In this document: positions 7,017 to 48,801 of the stretch, one piece after another | How positions within the stretch are numbered: the stretch's first letter is position 1 | Layout: each line of letters begins with the position of its first letter | Assembly (NCBI GenBank): GCA_016706815.1 | Contig: JADJIW010000040.1 | Location: forward strand, 16,251-80,250 | Direction: 5' to 3' | DNA length: 64,000 nt | Source of the DNA: Deltaproteobacteria bacterium | GTDB lineage: Bacteria; Myxococcota_A; UBA796; CAJQPC01 | The notes under the pieces: generated by a model | The model's input: the letters and a program-made list of their open reading frames with translations, nothing else | What the model was told of the DNA's origin: nothing | The model's database searches: none | Made by a program: the position numbers and the translations under genes

Positions 7017-7094
7017 TGGTGACCCCAACGGGATTCGAACCCGTGTTAGCGGAATGAAAATCCGCCGTCCTGGACCTGACTAGACGATGGGGTC
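7017..7094 (-). tRNA. tRNA-Glu (anticodon UUC), CCA encoded
   Basis: Reverse complement GACCCCATCGTCTAGTCAGGTCCAGGACGGCGGATTTTCATTCCGCTAACACGGGTTCGAATCCCGTTGGGGTCACCA. It has a 7 bp acceptor stem, anticodon loop TTTTCAT and a TPsiC GGTTCGAATCC. It is close to E. coli tRNA-Glu. Confidence 0.85.
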
Positions 7095-7102
7095 GAGGGG
7101 TA

Positions 7103-7175
<73 letters not shown>

Positions 7176-7213
7176 ATAGAGCGCAGGCGAAGTAACAGGG
7201 GGGGCCGCGCTGG

Positions 7214-7747: not shown

Positions 7748-8362
7748 TCAAGGCGTCAACGGCGGGGGAGGAGGGCTTCTTGGGCTCGGCGGCGGGCTTT
7801 CGGCGCCTCGGGCGCGGCGGCGCCTGGCGCCGGAGGGGTGAAACGTACGGTGTAGGGATCTGCGGTGGCGGCGGCGGCCGGCGACGCGCCACCCGGACGC
7901 CCCACGTTCGGCGGCGAAGGCGGCGGGGGCCGGGCGGGCGGTGAGCGGGGGCTGGCCCCGGCGGGCGGCGGCGAGGCGGTCGTCGTGACCGGGCGCGGCG
8001 GCGCGGGGCTCGGTCTCGGCGGCGGAGGCGGCGGCGGCCGGGGGCTTGGGCTTGGGCTTCCGTTTCTGGGCGGTGACGAGGTCTTGGTCGTACTGGGCGC
8101 GGGCGCGCTCGTCCCCCAAGGTGCGATAGGCCTGGTTCACCCCGGCGAACACGTCCTCCAGCATCTTCTCGAGGCCGCCGAGGTCTTGGCGGTAGTAGCG
8201 GTCGGGGTGAAACCGCCGCGAGAGGTTGTGGTAGGCGTTCTTCAGCGCCGTGCGGTCAAAGTCCTCCGCCACGCCGAGGAGCTCATAGTGTGTGCCGTCG
8301 CGCAGCACCTCGCTGAGCCGGTGCAGCTCGGCCACATCTTCAGGCTTGAGGCCGCCGCTCAT
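7748..8362 (-). CDS. J-domain (DnaJ-like) protein with Pro/Ala/Lys-rich linker; likely N-terminal part of the same broken DnaJ-TPR gene
   Basis: Track ORF with a J-domain signature (HYELLGV..LSRRFHPDR). After QKRKPKPKPP the translation degenerates into low-complexity sequence. Its start overlaps the xerC stop by 4 nt. Confidence 0.7.
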   Translation of the reverse strand: MSGGLKPEDVAELHRLSEVLRDGTHYELLGVAEDFDRTALKNAYHNLSRRFHPDRYYRQDLGGLEKMLEDVFAGVNQAYRTLGDERARAQYDQDLVTAQKRKPKPKPPAAAASAAETEPRAAAPGHDDRLAAARRGQPPLTARPAPAAFAAERGASGWRVAGRRRHRRSLHRTFHPSGARRRRARGAESPPPSPRSPPPPPLTP

Positions 8363-9294
8363 GGAGCCTCCTCGGGGTCAAAGGGTTCAAGTCTGTCGGG
8401 CGCCCCGCTCGCCCCGCCCGCGGCCCGCCGCCCGTGGGGGTGCGCGCTGCGGTGCACCTCCAACAGCCGCTCCAAAGAGACGTGGGCGTAGCGCTGGGTC
8501 GTAGACAAGGAAGCATGGCCAAGCTGCTCCTGAATGGCCCGTAGATCAGCCCCAGAGGCTAACATATGCGTCGCTGCGCTGTGTCTGAGGGCGTGGGGGT
8601 TCACCCGGGGCTGTCCGTTCTTGAGCGCGCTGTCTCCGACGATGGTGTGAATCGCCCGCGCAGAGAGCCGACCACCACGGTGGTTCAGAAAGAGCGCCCG
8701 GCCCTGGGCGGGGAGCTGGCGCATCCACAGGCCCAGCGCCTCGGCGGCGGGCGGGCCGAAGGGCACGCGGCGCTCTTTGCGGCCCTTGCCCTTTCGCACC
8801 GTGACGAGGAGCTGCCCGAGGTCGATGTCGTCGCGGTCCAAGGCCGAGACCTCCCCTACACGCAGGCCGGCGCCGTACATCAGCTCCAGGAGCGCCCGGT
8901 TGCGGTCGTGCAGCCAGCCCTCTTGAATCGGCGCCTCGACCAGCGCCGCGGCGTCCTGCTCGTCCAGGTAGCGCGGCACCTTCACCGGCAGGCGGGGGCT
9001 GCGCAGGCGCGCGGCGGGGGAGTCGGGGATCAGGCCTTCAGAGACCATCCACTTAAAGAAGGATCGCAGCGCCGCCACTCTGCGCCGAATGCTGGCGGCG
9101 GCGGGCGCGCCTTCAGCCACGGCGGCGAGGTGCTCCCGAAGATCCACCAGACGCGCGCTCTGGAGATCTCGTCCGCGCTCCAAAAGGCGCGCCCGCAACG
9201 CCGCGAGATCGGCGCCATACGCGCGCAGCGTGTGCTCGCTCGCGCCCCGCTCAGCGCGCAGAACAAGCAGGTATCGGTCCAGAAGCTCACTCAC
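8359..9294 (-). CDS. xerC: Tyrosine site-specific recombinase XerC/XerD family
   Basis: Track ORF. The N-terminus is the canonical Xer start (LLDRYLLVLRAERGASEHTLRAYGADL). The catalytic region is HALRHSAATHMLASGADLRAIQEQLGHASLSTTQRYAHV, with R..HxxR..Y. Confidence 0.85.
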   Translation of the reverse strand: MSELLDRYLLVLRAERGASEHTLRAYGADLAALRARLLERGRDLQSARLVDLREHLAAVAEGAPAAASIRRRVAALRSFFKWMVSEGLIPDSPAARLRSPRLPVKVPRYLDEQDAAALVEAPIQEGWLHDRNRALLELMYGAGLRVGEVSALDRDDIDLGQLLVTVRKGKGRKERRVPFGPPAAEALGLWMRQLPAQGRALFLNHRGGRLSARAIHTIVGDSALKNGQPRVNPHALRHSAATHMLASGADLRAIQEQLGHASLSTTQRYAHVSLERLLEVHRSAHPHGRRAAGGASGAPDRLEPFDPEEAP

Positions 9295-23867: not shown

Positions 23868-24036
23868 GACGACTCCGGATGCAGCGTCATCGCTGCGAGG
23901 CACACACACACTTTTAACCCGATAATGGGTACGCGGTCTCTCTTGTCATGTCAAGTCATCACCGAGGCTTCACCTGAACCCCAACAACGCCCCCAGCGCC
24001 CCTGCCTTCGCCGTTGTCTGCGGCCTGCTCTGCGTC

Positions 24037-25248
24037 TTGAGCGCGGCGGGCGTCGTGGCGCTGGGCGACCTGCGCGGCGCGGCGACGGCGTTTGTTGGCC
24101 TCACCAGCCTGTGGTCCCTCGGGGCCCTGGGCGCGGCGTGGGCGCACCGGGCTCAACCCTCCGCCGCCTGGGGCTGGCTGGCCTTGGGCGCGGCGCTGCG
24201 TGTGGGGATGCTCTTCTCCCCGGCGAGCCTCTCCGATGACGTCTACCGCTATCTCTGGGAGGGTGAGGTGATCGCCGCCGGGCTCAACCCCTTCTTCTAC
24301 GCGCCGAGCGACCCTGCGCTCACGCCCTTGCGGGATGCGGTCTGGGCCCAGGTGAACCACAAGGACGTCTCGACGATCTACCCGCCGGGGGCCTTGTGGC
24401 TGTTTCGTGGCGTGGTGGCGCTCACGGCCTCGCCTGTGGGCTGGAAGATCCTGTCCGGGGCCTGTGATCTCGGCGTGGCGGCGATCTTGTGGCGGCTGTG
24501 CGCGGCGCGCGGGATCGCCGCCTGGGCGCCCGTGGCCTACGCGCTGCACCCCTTGCCGATCATCGAGACCGCGGGGAGCGGGCATCTGGAGGGGCCCGCG
24601 GTCTTGGGGATGATGTTGAGCTTCACGTTCGCCCAGCGGCCGGGCCTCGCCGCGCTCTTCGGGTGGGCGGGGGCCTCGGTGAAGCTCTTGCCGGGCCTGG
24701 TGATCTTGGCCTTGGCCCGCACACCCAGCCGGGGCCTCGCCCTCGGCGTGCTCGTGGGGCTGCTCGCCATCGTGGCGTTGGGCCTGCCCTTTGTAGACGC
24801 CGGGAGCGCGCTTGGGCGAGGGTTCGGGCGGTACTACGAGGCCTGGGCGTTCAACGGCCTCGCCTTCTCGTTCTTGGAGGCGCTCACCGGGGACGGGCAG
24901 CGGGCGCGCTGGCTGGGCGTGGCCTTGGGCGGGCTCTACTGCGGAGACGTTCTGCGCCAGGGGCCCAGCCCGGATCGCCTGATGCTGCACGTCGCCGGGG
25001 CGCTCTTGGTGCTCTCCCCGGTGGTTCACCCTTGGTATGTCTTGTGGGCCTTGGCCCCGGCGATGCTGCGCGGGGTGTGGCCGTGGCTGGTGTTCGCCTC
25101 GTTGTGCCCCTTGTCGTACCTGGCGCTCGCTGAGTACGATGTCCGAGGTTGGCAGGAGGTCTGGTGGATCCCGTGGATCGAACATCCGGCGCTCTGGCTG
25201 AGCCTCCTCGTGTGGTGGGCTCGCTCGACGCCGCCCTCGCCGGGCTGA
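24037..25248 (+). CDS. Polytopic membrane protein, DUF2029/GT87-like glycosyltransferase (putative mannosyltransferase)
   Basis: Track ORF with a TTG start. It has many TM helices and a conserved HPWY motif near the C-terminus (VVHPWYVLWAL). Confidence 0.55.
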   Translation: MSAAGVVALGDLRGAATAFVGLTSLWSLGALGAAWAHRAQPSAAWGWLALGAALRVGMLFSPASLSDDVYRYLWEGEVIAAGLNPFFYAPSDPALTPLRDAVWAQVNHKDVSTIYPPGALWLFRGVVALTASPVGWKILSGACDLGVAAILWRLCAARGIAAWAPVAYALHPLPIIETAGSGHLEGPAVLGMMLSFTFAQRPGLAALFGWAGASVKLLPGLVILALARTPSRGLALGVLVGLLAIVALGLPFVDAGSALGRGFGRYYEAWAFNGLAFSFLEALTGDGQRARWLGVALGGLYCGDVLRQGPSPDRLMLHVAGALLVLSPVVHPWYVLWALAPAMLRGVWPWLVFASLCPLSYLALAEYDVRGWQEVWWIPWIEHPALWLSLLVWWARSTPPSPG

Positions 25249-26327
25249 GCCTGCCACCGGGCCTGCGCCGCCTCGCCATCGCCGTGCCCGACCTCACCCG
25301 GCCTCTGGACACCGTGCGCGTCTTGGCCACCCTTCGCCGGGCGCTGGGGGAGCGCGCCCCCGCGGAGATCACCGTCGTCGTGGGCCTCGGCCTGCACCGC
25401 CCGCTCACCGAGGCCGAGCTCTCGCGGATGCGCGCCGCTTGCGGCTGGCCCGTCGTGAACTCGACCCCCGACGACACCGCCGATCTCGGCCTCGTCCATG
25501 GCATCCCCTGCCAGGTCGCCCACCCCATCGCTGAGGCCGAGATGACCCTCGCCATCGGGGTCGTGGAGCTTCACCAATACGCGGGCTTCTCCGGCGGTCA
25601 CAAGGCCAGCGCCGTTGGCTGCGGCGGTCGTGACACCTTGGCCGCGCTGCACGCCCGGGCCATGGTCTGTGACCCCGAGGTGCAGGTGGGCCGGGTGGAG
25701 GGCAACCCCTTCCGCGAGGCCGTAGACGCCTTGGGTGAGCACAACGGCACCCGCCTCGCCCTGCTCTCTCTGGGCGATGGGCGCTGGATCTTGGGCGAGC
25801 CCCGGGCCGCCCTGCGCGTCGCCGCCGCCGCCCAAGACCCGTGGTGGACGGTGCCCGAGCCCGTCTCCGCCTGCATCCTGCGGGTGCCCGAGGCCAAAGC
25901 GGCGAACTTTTACCAGGCGAGCCGCGCCGCCACCTACCTCGCGCTCTCGCCCTCCCCTCCCCTCATCGACGGCGCGCGGATCGTGCTCGACGCGCGCTGC
26001 CCAGATGGCGCCGGAGACGGCGATGGGGAGCGCGCCTTCGCATCTCTCATGGCGATGACCGCGCCGCCTTGGCAGAGCTTACTCACCGGGCCGGTGCCCT
26101 CTGGCGCGGGGCTGCAGCGGGCGTTTATGCTCGCGCGCCTCGCCCAGCGGTATCACCTCATCGTCGCCGGGTGTGATCAGCCCGAGGCCCTGCAAAGGCT
26201 GGGGGTTGAGGCCACGTCTTCCCCCGCTTCAGCCGTCGCGCCGGGGGCGCTCACCGTCAATCAGCCGTTCACCCGGCTGCCTCAGCTTCAGCGGCCACCA
26301 CCGGCTTCGGGGACGGCGCCGGGCTGA
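25212..26327 (+). CDS. LarA-family (DUF2088, lactate-racemase N-terminal-like) protein
   Basis: Track ORF 25149..26327. The likely GTG start is near 25212. Motifs AVPDLTRP, GLHRP and HQYAGFSGGHKA correspond to LarA ISSDHTRP, FHRP and HFFAGFSGGRK. Confidence 0.6.
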   Translation: MVGSLDAALAGLSLPPGLRRLAIAVPDLTRPLDTVRVLATLRRALGERAPAEITVVVGLGLHRPLTEAELSRMRAACGWPVVNSTPDDTADLGLVHGIPCQVAHPIAEAEMTLAIGVVELHQYAGFSGGHKASAVGCGGRDTLAALHARAMVCDPEVQVGRVEGNPFREAVDALGEHNGTRLALLSLGDGRWILGEPRAALRVAAAAQDPWWTVPEPVSACILRVPEAKAANFYQASRAATYLALSPSPPLIDGARIVLDARCPDGAGDGDGERAFASLMAMTAPPWQSLLTGPVPSGAGLQRAFMLARLAQRYHLIVAGCDQPEALQRLGVEATSSPASAVAPGALTVNQPFTRLPQLQRPPPASGTAPG

Positions 26328-27735
26328 GGCTGCCCAAGCCCACCCACAGGTAGCCCAGGCCAAACAGCGCCAGCAGCGGCGCCGAGCCCCAGGCCCCGGC
26401 GAACATGCAGGCGACGGCGCCGAGGAGCTGCCCCAGGCCGAGGGTGATCTCAACGATGGCGCCGCCGTCGCCGCCCAAGGCGTATCGACCGCCGCCGGAC
26501 TCGCCCCGTTTGGGGGTGCGCACAAACGCCCCGACCTCGCCAAAGAGCGCCTCAAACACCGCCCGGCTCTGGTTCACGGCCATGCCCGCGCCCAAGGCCA
26601 TCGCCCAAGGCACCCGGCCCAGGCGCCGCGCCCAGTCGTTGTGATAGGCCCCGGCGCTCACCCCGTAGAACACGCCCAGGGACGTCATCGCCACGGTGAA
26701 GAACACGGCGTGGAGCGGCTCCACCAGGGCGTGCCCCACCCGCTGAATCGCCGCGAGGGGCGTGATCACCGAGAGCAGCAGCACCAGGGGATACGCGAGG
26801 TTCGCGCAGAGGTGCGCCGTGGCCTCAAGCTTCACCGGCCAAGGGGCGGGCGAGCGCCAGAGCCTCGGCAAGAGCTTCTTCGCGGTCTGGATCGAGCCCT
26901 TCGCCCAGCGGCGCTGCTGGCTCTTGAACGCCAAGATGTCGCCGGGAAGCTCAGCGGGCACGGCGAGATCCGGCAAGTACACAAACCGCCAGCCCACGAG
27001 CTGGGCGCGGTACGAGAGGTCGAGGTCTTCAGTGAGCGTGTCCCCTTGCCAGCCGCCGGCGTCGTGAATCGCCTCCCGGCGCCACAGCCCCGCCGTGCCG
27101 TTGAAGTTGAACCAGCGCCCGGAGCGCGCTCGGGCGGCGTGCTCGATGACGAAGTGCCCGTCCAACAACATCGCCTCCACCCGGGTGAGCCAAGACTCTC
27201 CTTCGTTGAGGTGTGTCCAGCGCGCCTGGACCATGCCGATCTCCGGGCCGAGGGCGGGCACGGCGCGGCGCAAAAAGTCGGCGGGAGGCACAAAGTCCGC
27301 GTCAAAGATGGCGATGATCGAGCCCTTCGCCCGGCTGAGCCCCCAAGCCAAGGCCCCGGCCTTAAAGCCCTGGCGGTCGGGCCTGCGCAGCACCGTGACG
27401 TCGAGGCCCTTCGCCCGGTGGCGCGCGGCGGCGGCTTCAGCGAGCGGGGTGGTGTCGTCGTCGCTGTCGTCGAGGATCTGCAGCTCCAGGCGATCCCGAG
27501 GCCAGTCCAGCGCCGCCGCGGCGTCGATGAGCCGGGTGATCACATACCGCTCGTTGTAGACCGGGAGCTGCACGGTGACGAGGGGCAACGTGCGCTCCTC
27601 CAGCGTCGTGAGGGTCGGCGCCTGCCGCCGGGTGCGCCAATACCGCGCCGTGAGCCACAGCCGATGCAGCCCGTAGAGCGAGAGCGTTGAGGCGAGCAGC
27701 GCGTGACCGCCCAGGAGCAAAAGTTCCGTCACCAC
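26269..27735 (-). CDS. Processive family-2 glycosyltransferase (cellulose/chitin-synthase-like), C-terminal TM domain
   Basis: Track ORF with DDSDD, DADF.P, TED and QQRRW motifs plus N- and C-terminal TM helices. Confidence 0.8.
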   Translation of the reverse strand: MVTELLLLGGHALLASTLSLYGLHRLWLTARYWRTRRQAPTLTTLEERTLPLVTVQLPVYNERYVITRLIDAAAALDWPRDRLELQILDDSDDDTTPLAEAAAARHRAKGLDVTVLRRPDRQGFKAGALAWGLSRAKGSIIAIFDADFVPPADFLRRAVPALGPEIGMVQARWTHLNEGESWLTRVEAMLLDGHFVIEHAARARSGRWFNFNGTAGLWRREAIHDAGGWQGDTLTEDLDLSYRAQLVGWRFVYLPDLAVPAELPGDILAFKSQQRRWAKGSIQTAKKLLPRLWRSPAPWPVKLEATAHLCANLAYPLVLLLSVITPLAAIQRVGHALVEPLHAVFFTVAMTSLGVFYGVSAGAYHNDWARRLGRVPWAMALGAGMAVNQSRAVFEALFGEVGAFVRTPKRGESGGGRYALGGDGGAIVEITLGLGQLLGAVACMFAGAWGSAPLLALFGLGYLWVGLGSLSPAPSPKPVVAAEAEAAG

Positions 27736-28094
27736 GACCCCGTCGCCACGACCGTCTCGACGGCTCCTCCCGACCTCAAGCGCCAGGGTGAGCCGCGAGA
27801 CGTTTTAGCCCCGCAGACGACCTCCGCGCAAGCCGCGCCCCGCTCGGGTATAGTGAGCTTGGCCTCTGCCCGGTTCGAGTACAGAGCGATCGTGGTTCCT
27901 CCACAAGTATGTCCCGGGACCCGCCCCTCTCCGTGGTGTGCACGCCTCCTCGTGAGGAAGCCTGAAGCGGGAATGCGGCTCCCCCCTCCTGAGTGGAGGA
28001 GGACCCCAACGCTCACACGGCCAGGGTGGAGGCCACTTTTTTGCGCGGACGCCGACACGGGAACCTCCCCGCCGCCGCCAGGGTCTCCTGCACC

Positions 28095-29090
28095 ATGACC
28101 ATCGTAAGCCTGCTCGTGCTCTTCGCCTGCGCCGCCCGCGCGCCCGTCGTGCTCTACCCCTTGGACCAGCACCAGCCCCCGGCGGCGCTGGTCGGGGTCT
28201 TCGCCAGCCAGAGCCCCGACGCGCTGTTTGAGGACGCCTACTCCCGGCTCCTCAACGACGACCTGGAGGGCGCTGAGCAACGGCTGGTGTACCTCGCGGG
28301 CCTGCCGGACGGCCCACCCGAGGCGCTCTACCACCTGGGCGTCGTCTACGAGCTGCGCGGAGCGCTGGAGACGGCGATCTCGGCCTACGATCTGCTCCTC
28401 ACCCAAGATCCCCCTGAGGAGCTCGCGCCGAGCGTACACTTTCGCCGCGGCCTGTGCCTTGAGGAGCTCGGCCGCTTTGACGAGGCGCTCAAGGCCTTCG
28501 CCAAGGTGCCTACCACCGGCGGCCTGAGCCTCAACGACCGCGTCACCTACGACGTGGCGCGTGGCGTGGCGATGTTGGGCTCGGGCAAAGAGGCCAAAGG
28601 GCTTGAGCTGCTCACCGCCGCGCTCTCCACCACCCGCCGCGACCCAGAGCTGGCCTGGATCCTCGGCAAAGGCTGGTACACCCTCGCCCGGCACGACCTC
28701 GACCAAGCGGCGGCGCTCTCGCTGAACGAGTCTGAGCGGAAGGTCAAGAAGAACCTAGAGGCCCGGGCGGGGCTCATCATGGACGCCGAGGCCGACCTCG
28801 TGCACGTCGTCGAGCAGCACGAGCCGGAGTGGATCCTCCGGGGCCTGCTCGACCTCGGCGACGCCTACATCACGCTCCGCGAAGACATGATGCGCTCGCC
28901 CACCCCCGCCGGGCTCAGCGCCGAGCAGGCCGCGCTCTACGTCGCCCAGGTCGACAAGAGCACCCGCGTGCTCATCGCCAAGGCGTTCAACGCCTACGAC
29001 CAGGGCCTCATCGTCGCGGGCACCCTCGGGTTTGAGGGGGAGCTGACCGAGACCCTACGCGCCCGGCGCGACGCCTTGCCCACGGACTGA
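28095..29090 (+). CDS. TPR-like lipoprotein
   Basis: Track ORF 27993..29090. The real start is MTIVSLLVLFACAA at 28095 (lipobox L-F-A-C). The rest is helical repeat content. Confidence 0.5.
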   Translation: MTIVSLLVLFACAARAPVVLYPLDQHQPPAALVGVFASQSPDALFEDAYSRLLNDDLEGAEQRLVYLAGLPDGPPEALYHLGVVYELRGALETAISAYDLLLTQDPPEELAPSVHFRRGLCLEELGRFDEALKAFAKVPTTGGLSLNDRVTYDVARGVAMLGSGKEAKGLELLTAALSTTRRDPELAWILGKGWYTLARHDLDQAAALSLNESERKVKKNLEARAGLIMDAEADLVHVVEQHEPEWILRGLLDLGDAYITLREDMMRSPTPAGLSAEQAALYVAQVDKSTRVLIAKAFNAYDQGLIVAGTLGFEGELTETLRARRDALPTD

Positions 29091-47424: not shown

Positions 47425-48801
47425 ATGAAGCGCTTGATGACCCTCCTGCTCCCTGTGCTCGGACTCGCCGCAGGCGGCGTCGCGTTGGCGCTCTTGGGCG
47501 ACGGCCAAGAGACCCCGGCCCTCATCACCGGCCTCGTCTCGGGCTTGATGCTCTGCGGCGCCGCGATGGCCCACGCCCCGATGTTGGGTGTGGCGGCCCT
47601 GGGCGCGTACGGCGCGGGCCTCTCGGCGTATCTCGCCGTGCAGCACAAGGTCGCGATGGCCGGCGGGTCGAGCGTCTGCAACATCAACGACGTGCTCAAC
47701 TGCGACCTCGTGAACACCAGCGAGTGGTCTGAGATCGGCGGCTTGCCCATCGCGATGTTTGGCCTCGCGTTCTACGCCGCGCTCACCGTCGTCGGTGTGC
47801 AGGCCTGGCGTGACCGCCCGGGCTTAGACCGCGCCGCCGCCTTCACCTTGGCCCTGGCCATCCCCGGTCTCGGCGTCTCCTTGTTCTTGGGCGCGGTGAG
47901 CCTGCAGCTCGGCGCGTTCTGCATCCTCTGCGTCACGACCTACCTCATCAACGCCCTGCTCGTCGTCGCTGGGGTCCAGGCCCTTCGGGGTGAGCCCTTC
48001 TTCGATCAGCTCCCCTCAGCGCTCACGGGCTACAAAGATCGTTCGTTGCCTCTGGCGCTCATGGGCGCCGTCGTGGGCGGGATGGGCGGTTTTTACCTGT
48101 ACGAGAGCGCCAAGCTCCCCGCCTCGGCCCAGGCCATCGAGGCCGTCAACGACGGCAACGCCGAGAGCGCCGACTACGGCCGGCTCTACGAGCAGGTCGC
48201 GGGCAAGGTGAACCTCCACGGCTACGAGCCCGCCTGGGGCAAACCCGACGCGCCGTTCACCGTCGTCGAGTTCGCCGACTACCAGTGCCCCCACTGCGCG
48301 ATGATGGCCAAAGAGATCAAGGCCGTCTCCGCCAAGTTCCCCGAGATGCGGGTGCTCTACAAACACTACCCGCTGTCCAACATCTGCAACGACCGCATCC
48401 CCTCTCCGGGCCACACCGAGTCGTGTATGGCCTCGGCCGCCGCGGTCTGCGCCACCCAGCAGGGCCGCTTCTGGGAGCTCAACGCGCAGATGTTTGAGAA
48501 CCAGGACGTGCTCAACAAAGAGAACATCCGGTTCATGGCCCAGCAGCAGAACCTCGACATGACCGCTCTGGACGCCTGCATGAGCGACGAGGCCACGAGC
48601 GACCGCGTGCGCAGCGACGTGGCCCACGGCTGGGAGGCCGGGGTCATGGCGACGCCCTCGCTGTTCGTGAAGGGCCTGCTCGACGATCCAACCGCCTGGG
48701 TTCACATCACCAGCGGCTCTGAGGGCCTCGCGCTCTTGATTGAGGCCAAGAAGAAGGGCGTCCGGCTGCCCGCGCCTCGCCCGCCGACGCCGATGGAGTG
48801 A
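47425..48801 (+). CDS. Vitamin K epoxide reductase (VKOR) fused to thioredoxin/DsbA-like domain
   Basis: Track ORF. The N-terminal 4-TM VKOR domain carries CNIND..C and CILC motifs. The C-terminal DsbA-like domain carries CPHC (DYQCPHCAM). Confidence 0.8.
   Translation: MKRLMTLLLPVLGLAAGGVALALLGDGQETPALITGLVSGLMLCGAAMAHAPMLGVAALGAYGAGLSAYLAVQHKVAMAGGSSVCNINDVLNCDLVNTSEWSEIGGLPIAMFGLAFYAALTVVGVQAWRDRPGLDRAAAFTLALAIPGLGVSLFLGAVSLQLGAFCILCVTTYLINALLVVAGVQALRGEPFFDQLPSALTGYKDRSLPLALMGAVVGGMGGFYLYESAKLPASAQAIEAVNDGNAESADYGRLYEQVAGKVNLHGYEPAWGKPDAPFTVVEFADYQCPHCAMMAKEIKAVSAKFPEMRVLYKHYPLSNICNDRIPSPGHTESCMASAAAVCATQQGRFWELNAQMFENQDVLNKENIRFMAQQQNLDMTALDACMSDEATSDRVRSDVAHGWEAGVMATPSLFVKGLLDDPTAWVHITSGSEGLALLIEAKKKGVRLPAPRPPTPME

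Follow-up and report, generated by a model that had tools for sequence, protein, structure and literature searches.

Small GT-C glycosyltransferases of the PimE/ALG3 type transfer a sugar from a polyprenyl-phosphate-sugar to a lipid-linked acceptor at the outer face of the membrane, and in GT-C enzymes the catalytic acid lies in the first extracytoplasmic loop. The nickel-pincer nucleotide (NPN) enzymes of the LarA superfamily are known from soluble acid metabolism, and about half of this superfamily has no assigned substrate. No paper linking the LarA-family domain DUF2088 with a glycosyltransferase (GT) was found in the literature searched. The locus described here brings the two together. 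It lies in contig JADJIW010000040.1 of a Deltaproteobacteria bacterium (assembly GCA_016706815.1), of which a stretch of 64 kb, called the window below, was analyzed, and it consists of three open reading frames (ORFs): ORF1 for a GT-C glycosyltransferase, ORF2 for a LarA-family protein, and the convergent ORF3 for a cellulose-synthase-like GT2 glycosyltransferase. These gene and family assignments, which agree with those of an earlier note made from the sequence alone, are close to certain. The trio is syntenic in an uncultured Myxococcota clade, and by its sequence ORF2 represents a truncated, GT-embedded form of a LarA group that is known but uncharacterised. It offers a promising lead to the function of that group, and not yet evidence of a new pathway.

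The LarA group in question is LarAH Group 25, which was tabulated with 'Unknown function' in the supplement of Desguin et al. 2020 (PMC7583248), with the members Htur_2912, Natoc_2745, HFX_2777 and RoseRS_3215, the signature D R H H Q Y K H ... Y Q S/T R G Q R, and an SF1 helicase as the only tabulated neighbor. In LarA, H108 and H174 are catalytic, R75, K184 and H200 bind NPN, and F175, F176, W358 and T359 are the specificity positions (PMC11770544). ORF2 was brought onto the LarA numbering by a profile-to-5huq alignment and a bridged MAFFT multiple alignment, in which D27, R30, H62, H121, K131 and H147 map to the cofactor and catalytic residues D72, R75, H108, H174, K184 and H200, respectively, Y234/Q235 map to the carboxylate-binding Y294/Q295, and R238 takes the place of K298. 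By these roles, K131 would tether the cofactor, H147 would be the nickel ligand, D27 and R30 would bind NPN, and R30 and R238 belong, with Y234/Q235, to the carboxylate-binding set. At the specificity positions, ORF2 has Q122/Y123 for F175/F176 and Q302/R303 for W358/T359. The residues Q122, Y123, R238, Q302 and R303 are identical to those of RoseRS_3215 and Htur_2912, and the active-site residues are invariant across at least 22 homologues with identities as low as 44%. Full-length Group 25 homologues from species-representative genomes (405–430 aa; haloarchaea, Roseiflexus, Ignavibacteria and Thermoleophilia) share 36–40% identity with ORF2 over nearly the whole protein. The Myxococcota-type LarA-like proteins are monophyletic in the clade tree, much more divergent from LarA, and shortened. 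ORF2 lacks ~45 N-terminal residues, with its matches beginning at LarA position ~44–60; the bounded ORFs of its Myxococcota-type relatives encode 348–358 aa, and the haloarchaeal homologues are full length. This N-terminal shortening was confined to Myxococcota-type proteins, the majority of them GT-linked; two Bradymonadales-type homologues (L082 and L084; such codes denote relatives' loci in the comparison set) also start late and have no GT neighbor on their short contigs. The shared signature, the monophyly and the truncation, taken together, identify ORF2 at the sequence level as a shortened Myxococcota branch of Group 25.

At the protein level, ORF2 matched Pfam Lar_N above the cut-off (E=7e-24, profile positions 55–200 of 204), and its profile matched the malate racemase Mar2 (6d6z) with E=2.5e-35. 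It reached no curated equivalog threshold: the best NCBIfam match was the malate racemase (MAR) model LarAH5, with 128 bits against a cut-off of 462, and LarAH6 gave 113 against 500, while full-length Group 25 homologues, at ~250 bits versus the MAR models, are also below cut-off. The AlphaFold (AF2) model of ORF2 has a mean predicted local distance difference test score (pLDDT) of 95 and a predicted TM-score (pTM) of 0.91, and shows a complete two-domain LarA fold. The Foldseek fold search gave TM-scores of 0.84 and 0.79 to the holo-LarA structures 9eia and 5huq, respectively, and all 19 significant matches out of 19 were LarA-family proteins. Neither a transmembrane segment nor a membrane anchor was found in ORF2. 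A loss of the cofactor-binding Lys/His, which the earlier note counted among the signs against its proposal, was not seen, and both catalytic His are present as well. Because the NPN-tethering, nickel-coordinating, catalytic His and carboxylate-binding residues are all kept, ORF2 is most likely an NPN-dependent C2 racemase/epimerase, and we think it probable that the enzyme is active. That the cofactor residues are all invariant in the ORF2 family implies that NPN chemistry is under selection, and larB, larC and larE are therefore predicted to be encoded elsewhere in the genome.

The pocket gives some indication of the substrate. Among characterised enzymes, Mar1/Mar2 (LarAH5/LarAH6) are the best sequence match to ORF2, and the MAR rule is H/Q at 358 together with Lys at 359, whose charge is thought to bind the second carboxylate (PMC11770544). 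Like the malate racemases, ORF2 has a Gln at the W358 position followed by a positive residue and could bind a second anionic group; since this Q358/R359 pocket resembles theirs, its substrate is probably a small 2-hydroxy acid with a second anionic group. ORF2 does not fit the MAR equivalogs themselves: unlike MAR, ORF2 has Arg rather than Lys at 359, Arg at K298, a shortened N-terminus and a score below the equivalog cut-off, and no malate-metabolism genes were annotated near it in the window. The neighborhoods of the relatives gave no substrate clue. Full-length Group 25 homologues adjoin Lhr and Dna2-like helicases with no glycosyltransferases nearby, and the LarA-like genes without GT linkage and the haloarchaeal homologues lie beside the housekeeping genes aroC and cysS, the Tad pilus, these helicases, or MBL. 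In six haloarchaeal genomes, the full-length Group 25 LarA homologue is immediately preceded, on its own strand, by a gene for a PAP2-family membrane lipid-phosphate phosphatase (for example L080, 8745–9653(+)), the only membrane- or lipid-related neighbor seen outside Myxococcota. Group 8 of Desguin et al. 2020, with a 60% COG1215 GT2 association (PMC7583248), was considered as a GT2-linked precedent and rejected, being composed of full-length proteins from C. botulinum strains with another active-site signature.

The synteny of the trio was compared over 6 contig look-ups and 80 species-level loci, and the counts refer to Myxococcota-type loci with enough flanking sequence. Of 45 species-level loci, 35 have a GT-C gene directly upstream of the LarA-like gene and on its strand; a GT2 gene lies downstream, always in convergent orientation, in 22 of 33. 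The arrangement is far beyond chance and is shared by dozens of species-level genomes with LarA-like proteins that are only 47–62% identical; the conservation across Myxococcota that the earlier note had considered is borne out within one clade of that phylum. In these relatives, the LarA-like start overlaps the end of the GT-C gene or lies <35 nt from its stop, and adjacent GT2 and LarA-like 3′ ends overlap in 19 of 26 pairs, by 4–166 nt and most often by 35 nt. The GT linkage is ancestral on the LarA-like clade tree. Variant loci carry further genes: a 509-aa polytopic membrane protein between the LarA-like gene and GT2 (L017, 7724–9250(-), and about seven others), a 349-aa acidic putative lipoprotein after GT2 (L006, 12552–13598(-), and 17 others), a GT4, or other membrane proteins. 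The first two have no Pfam match, and both of their genes are absent from the window. Many species-representative metagenome-assembled genome records with this Myxococcota-type locus bear titles such as 'uncultured Enterobacterales', 'Klebsiella pneumoniae' and 'Bifidobacterium breve' (L008, L010, L012, L013, L015, L019, L021, L023, L027, L032 and L051), and are evidently mislabelled.

The membrane protein upstream of ORF2 was recognized mainly by its fold. Pfam GT87 (PF09594) matched ORF1 below threshold (E=2e-3, 18.1 bits against a cut-off of 25), many ORF1 homologues have precomputed matches to PF09594 or PF26314 (GT87/MptA_B family), with DUF2029 or GT87 as source names, and a sequence-level search of the PDB with ORF1 returned no matches beyond spurious DARPin ones. 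The AF2 model, built from 26 sequences, is all-helical with about 12 or more helices (pLDDT 91, pTM 0.92). Foldseek matched it with probability 1.00 to PimE (9dm5), yeast ALG3 (9s6r), PIG-U and GPI mannosyltransferase I (9wno), and with 0.97 to ArnT; the TM-scores to PimE, ALG3 and GPI mannosyltransferase I were 0.56–0.61. On the basis of this model, ORF1 is a small GT-C enzyme with the polytopic GT-C fold. Its invariant SDD motif falls in the loop after the second helix (model helices H41–58 and H68–80) and is a candidate for the catalytic acidic motif of GT-C enzymes. The use of a polyprenyl-phosphate-sugar donor would be expected from the fold family only.

ORF3 is, by its full catalytic motif set, a cellulose-synthase-like GT2: DDSDDD (89–94), FDADF (144–148), TED (235–237) and QQRRW (273–277) align with those of BcsA. 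It matched Pfam Glyco_tranf_2_3 (E=2e-27) and the NCBIfam CelA domain, the latter with 115 bits against a cut-off of 699, and falls far short of all NCBIfam equivalog cut-offs, among them those for CelA, PgaC and NodC. Hydropathy indicated one N-terminal and at least four C-terminal hydrophobic segments. In the PDB, it matched BcsA (4hg6, E=6e-21) and 6yv7 (E=7e-18). The earlier note had read QQRRW as a sign of a likely polymerising enzyme; the motif stands, and polymerisation cannot be inferred from QxxRW alone, because the non-polymerising, minimal 6yv7 scores nearly as well as BcsA.

The arrangement of these genes is summarized in the table below. The window is ~70% G+C, and long ORFs therefore occur on both strands. 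Third-position GC (GC3) served as the coding-frame test and was 0.91 for 24037–25248(+), 0.85 for 25149–26327(+) and 0.90 for 26269–27735(-), which is well above that of the antisense ORFs 23959–25257(-) and 26173–27690(+) (only 0.68–0.70); ORF1, ORF2 and ORF3 are thus the coding genes, and the antisense ORFs were rejected. ORF1 probably starts at GTG 24055, giving 397 aa, as in P0121. The first in-frame start of ORF2, TTG 25149, would give a 100-nt overlap with ORF1, and was dropped for GTG 25212, which fits homologue N-termini such as MAGSVQEALSTL and MVGNPREALAAA as well as the gene predicted in a metagenome contig of 97% identity. A perfect AGGAGG (window 25153–25164 site) also stands inside ORF1, 5 nt before an in-frame GTG at 25164, which would add 16 residues to ORF2 and extend the overlap to 85 nt; it leaves a small doubt, and the homologue N-termini favor 25212. 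Both overlaps reported by the earlier note, of about 35 and about 60 nt, agree with the 37 and 59 nt read here. The co-directional overlap implies that ORF1 and ORF2 are on one transcript, and their translation is probably coupled. Most codons of the conserved ORF2 C-terminal motif PFxRLPQL (nt 26265–26288) lie inside the convergent overlap, antisense to the variable ORF3 tail, and no terminators or hairpins of note were found in this overlap.

Coordinates (window numbering) of the trio, its overlaps and motifs, and the adjacent lipoprotein gene
Feature	Position	Strand	Description
ORF1	24037–25248	+	Polytopic GT-C, GT87/DUF2029/MptA_B type; 403 aa from TTG 24037
ORF1 motif S66-D67-D68-x-x-R-Y-x-W-E-G	24232–24264	+	Invariant in homologue alignments
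ORF1/ORF2 co-directional overlap	25212–25248	+	37 nt, different reading frames
ORF2	25212–26327	+	Cytoplasmic LarA-family protein (predicted), 371 aa, LarAH Group 25 lineage
ORF2 active-site residues	25287–26123	+	ORF2 positions assigned to LarA_Lp positions by alignment mapping
ORF2/ORF3 convergent 3′-3′ overlap	26269–26327		59 nt, fixed by two stop codons, read directly
ORF3	26269–27735	-	Membrane-embedded cellulose-synthase-like GT2 (predicted), 488 aa
TPR lipoprotein gene	28095–29090	+	LFAC lipobox, Pfam TPR matches, divergent from ORF3

One flank of the trio holds nusA, rimP, cpoB/ybgF and a pal-like gene for an OmpA/TIG protein, in accordance with the pal-cpoB neighborhood described in the earlier note; the other flank holds the TPR lipoprotein gene and then the ftsZ end of the dcw cluster. 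Homologues of the TPR lipoprotein flank GT2 in most loci, including L090, and one lies directly downstream of GT2 in L089, so that it is a possible accessory component of the GT module, a membership suggested by its position. The gap between the divergent GT2 and TPR genes, the latter starting with the ATG at 28095, holds a 6S/SsrS RNA gene (window 27860–28036(+); Rfam RF00013, 64.6 bits), and the ssrS-then-TPR order is conserved in three relatives (L007 12622–12802, L009 13750–13929 and L011 13525–13708), which suggests that the two are co-transcribed. Elsewhere in the window, 60961–63159(+) encodes a bacterial Major Vault Protein (MVP)-like protein of 733 aa (MVP shoulder domain, E=1.9e-19; Vault_3 repeat, E=4e-8), and 47425–48798(+), beside smpB and prmA, codes for a fusion of VKOR (vitamin K epoxide reductase) and DsbA/thioredoxin domains. 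The tRNA-Glu(TTC) and tRNA-Lys(TTT) genes at 7017–7176(-) lie ~1.2 kb from a tyrosine-recombinase gene (XerC/D-like or integrase; 8362–9294(-)).

Taken as a whole, the trio can be read as a glycoconjugate module of the cell envelope, conserved in an uncultured Myxococcota clade and built on a two-gene GT core, to which ORF2 contributes a stereoisomer of a 2-hydroxy acid. We favor this integrated reading only tentatively, and put the functional link between ORF2 and the GT pair, taken by itself, just short of an even call. In such a module, ORF3 would act at the cytoplasmic face with a nucleotide-sugar donor, its product maybe passing through its own transmembrane domain, and ORF1 would act at the periplasmic face, moving a sugar from a polyprenyl-phosphate-sugar to a lipid-linked or membrane-proximal acceptor. 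ORF2, a soluble protein whose gene would have entered the locus of this clade behind that for GT-C and would be co-transcribed with the latter, would invert C2 of an anionic 2-hydroxy acid rather than epimerise a sugar, and would depend on LarB, LarC and LarE encoded elsewhere in the genome. The resulting stereoisomer could serve as a substituent, aglycone or primer of the glycoconjugate. The most specific form of this proposal, in which the shortened Group 25 LarA is a dedicated GT-C/GT2 partner that supplies a D/L-hydroxy-acid building block or aglycone (malate-, tartrate-, glycerate- or sulfolactate-like) for an undescribed Myxococcota envelope glycolipid or glycan, is unlikely as it stands.

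Several observations weigh against the integrated reading. The orthologous locus L090 (order TPR, GT2 / GT-C, pal-cpoB-rimP-nusA; nusA 71% identical) carries GT2 and GT-C without a LarA-like gene, and so does L091 in a different neighborhood, where a 200-aa GT2-domain gene precedes GT-C. In both, GT2 and GT-C are directly convergent, with a 3′ overlap of 82–152 nt (L090 7001–9621; L091 7001–10425). On the other hand, the orthologous locus L025 (9049–14729) has the LarA-like gene between pal and the TPR gene and neither glycosyltransferase. A 402-aa ORF in L025 converges on the LarA-like gene with a 4-nt overlap; it was rejected as a GT remnant, having no Pfam match and an hhalign Probab=0.05 (0.05%) against the GT-C alignment. 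In seven relatives (L003, L022, L023, L029, L034, L040 and L041), the LarA-like gene was found in unrelated contexts. The GT2/GT-C pair, which the orthologous locus also has where LarA is missing, is therefore the core, and the LarA-like gene was inserted in one clade and can exist alone; the idea of the earlier note that the trio forms one pathway holds as far as synteny is concerned, and not as an obligate unit. The active-site signature is likewise the same in full-length Group 25 homologues without GT neighbors, so that the chemistry of ORF2 does not appear to be glycan-specific. As for partner genes, tblastn with the L. plantarum LarB, LarC1, LarC2 and LarE from the plasmid lar operon (E<0.01) found no larB, larC or larE in the 64-kb window or within the 10-kb flanks of 87 related loci, a check to which the earlier note had pointed. 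In the prevalence of LarA homologues, Myxococcota rank with the highest phyla (PMC11770544). Whole-window annotation showed no gene for a polyprenyl-phosphate-sugar synthase, nucleotide-sugar metabolism or nickel transport.

Much of this also fits a positional hitch-hiking of ORF2, the alternative that survives best and one that we regard as doubtful yet quite possible. ORF2 would then be an independent central-metabolism racemase of a malate-like 2-hydroxy acid, kept within the stable nusA-rimP-cpoB-pal ... ftsZ neighborhood and without a role in the GT product. The separability of the two parts, the pocket shared with homologues without GT linkage, the SF1 helicase as the only published context of Group 25, and the synteny of the flanking region as a whole all speak for it. 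However, it leaves unexplained why, in 35 of 45 species and at identities down to 47%, the LarA-like gene overlaps with or directly adjoins the GT-C stop on the same strand, which is unusual for unrelated genes, why its 3′ end is wedged tightly enough to overlap GT2, and why the truncated clade is also the clade with the ancestral GT linkage.

The proposal of the earlier note that ORF2 epimerises a sugar substrate of the pathway, such as C2 of an aldonic acid or a free alpha-hydroxyl of a lipid- or nucleotide-linked sugar acid, whose rare configuration GT2 or GT-C would then transfer, has lost ground and is now improbable. LarA-family gluconate/mannonate 2-epimerases do exist (PMC7583248), ORF2 is embedded between two glycosyltransferases, and glycan genes such as GT4 occur in variant loci. 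Nevertheless, the GntE specificity signature E, V, A, H is absent from ORF2, which has Q, Y, Q, R at these positions, the hexonate-epimerase NCBIfam model gave only 31 bits, and ORF2 is predicted to be soluble and cytoplasmic with no membrane anchor. The identical pocket in relatives without GT linkage favors a small anionic 2-hydroxy acid over a sugar or glycolipid. Finally, a non-catalytic or cofactor-less ORF2 that has lost NPN chemistry, for example a regulatory or scaffolding subunit of GT-C, would suit the missing N-terminal residues, the lack of larB, larC and larE in the window or near the 87 loci, and the low scores against all curated LarA-family models, but is very improbable, because none of the NPN-binding and catalytic residues varies within the clade, a pattern not to be expected unless catalysis is under selection, the two-domain fold is predicted whole and with confidence, and the genes of lar biosynthesis often lie apart from larA homologues (PMC7583248).

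If the functional link is real, it would extend nickel-pincer enzymes from soluble acid metabolism to envelope glycoconjugate biosynthesis, and with ORF2 as a dedicated GT partner it would be the first such link and give LarAH Group 25 its first physiological role; if the link is only positional, the locus is a case of ordinary conserved synteny in GC-rich genomes. Either way, the association with a translationally coupled PimE-like GT-C and a cellulose-synthase-like GT2, together with the clade-specific N-terminal truncation, makes the clade a testable handle on Group 25. The GT2/GT-C pair near tol-pal and the dcw cluster is itself an uncharacterised Myxococcota envelope system. ORF3-type GT2 proteins form a very large family with orthologues in lineages beyond the LarA-bearing clade, and the convergent pair, conserved well outside that clade, looks like a two-enzyme envelope module of wider occurrence.

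Compared with known systems, ORF1 is similar to the mycobacterial GT87 enzyme PimE, ALG3 and GPI mannosyltransferase I in fold and in its size of ~400 aa, with an acidic DD motif in the first extracytoplasmic loop of ORF1, while the sequence identity is only 13–18% and, unlike for PimE, the context of a phosphatidylinositol-mannoside pathway is absent. ORF3 shares the GT-A domain, the D/DxD/TED/QxxRW motifs and a predicted C-terminal transmembrane bundle with both BcsA (4hg6) and PcManGT (6yv7), a minimal cellulose-synthase-like archaeal mannosyltransferase; BcsA has ~730–890 aa with a PilZ domain and a BcsB partner, whereas the 488-aa ORF3 has neither. In synthase-dependent exopolysaccharide systems (Bcs, Pga, Alg and Pel), a TPR export partner is present, and a TPR lipoprotein gene stands beside GT2 in most of the loci here; the latter protein is small (331 aa) and lacks a beta-barrel, its gene is separated from GT2 by the 6S RNA gene, and no PilZ or GGDEF domain, as for the cyclic di-GMP receptor of exopolysaccharide systems, was found. 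As in ArnC/ArnT, GtrB/Gtr, Ppm1/PimE and DPM1/ALG3, a GT2 and a GT-C gene are kept as a pair. The GT2 of such two-sided glycosylation systems is a short DPM1/GtrB-type polyprenyl-phosphate sugar synthase without QxxRW, whereas ORF3 has QQRRW and matches ArnC and DPMS only at E ~3e-4, and, unlike in those systems, no flippase gene is present at the locus. The closest counterpart of ORF2 is Group 25 proper, whose active site is the same (D72, R75, H108, H174, Q175, Y176, K184, H200, Y294, Q295, R298, Q358 and R359); its members are 405–430 aa long and stand beside helicases, whereas those of the Myxococcota clade have 348–371 aa and are mostly embedded in the GT-C/GT2 cluster.

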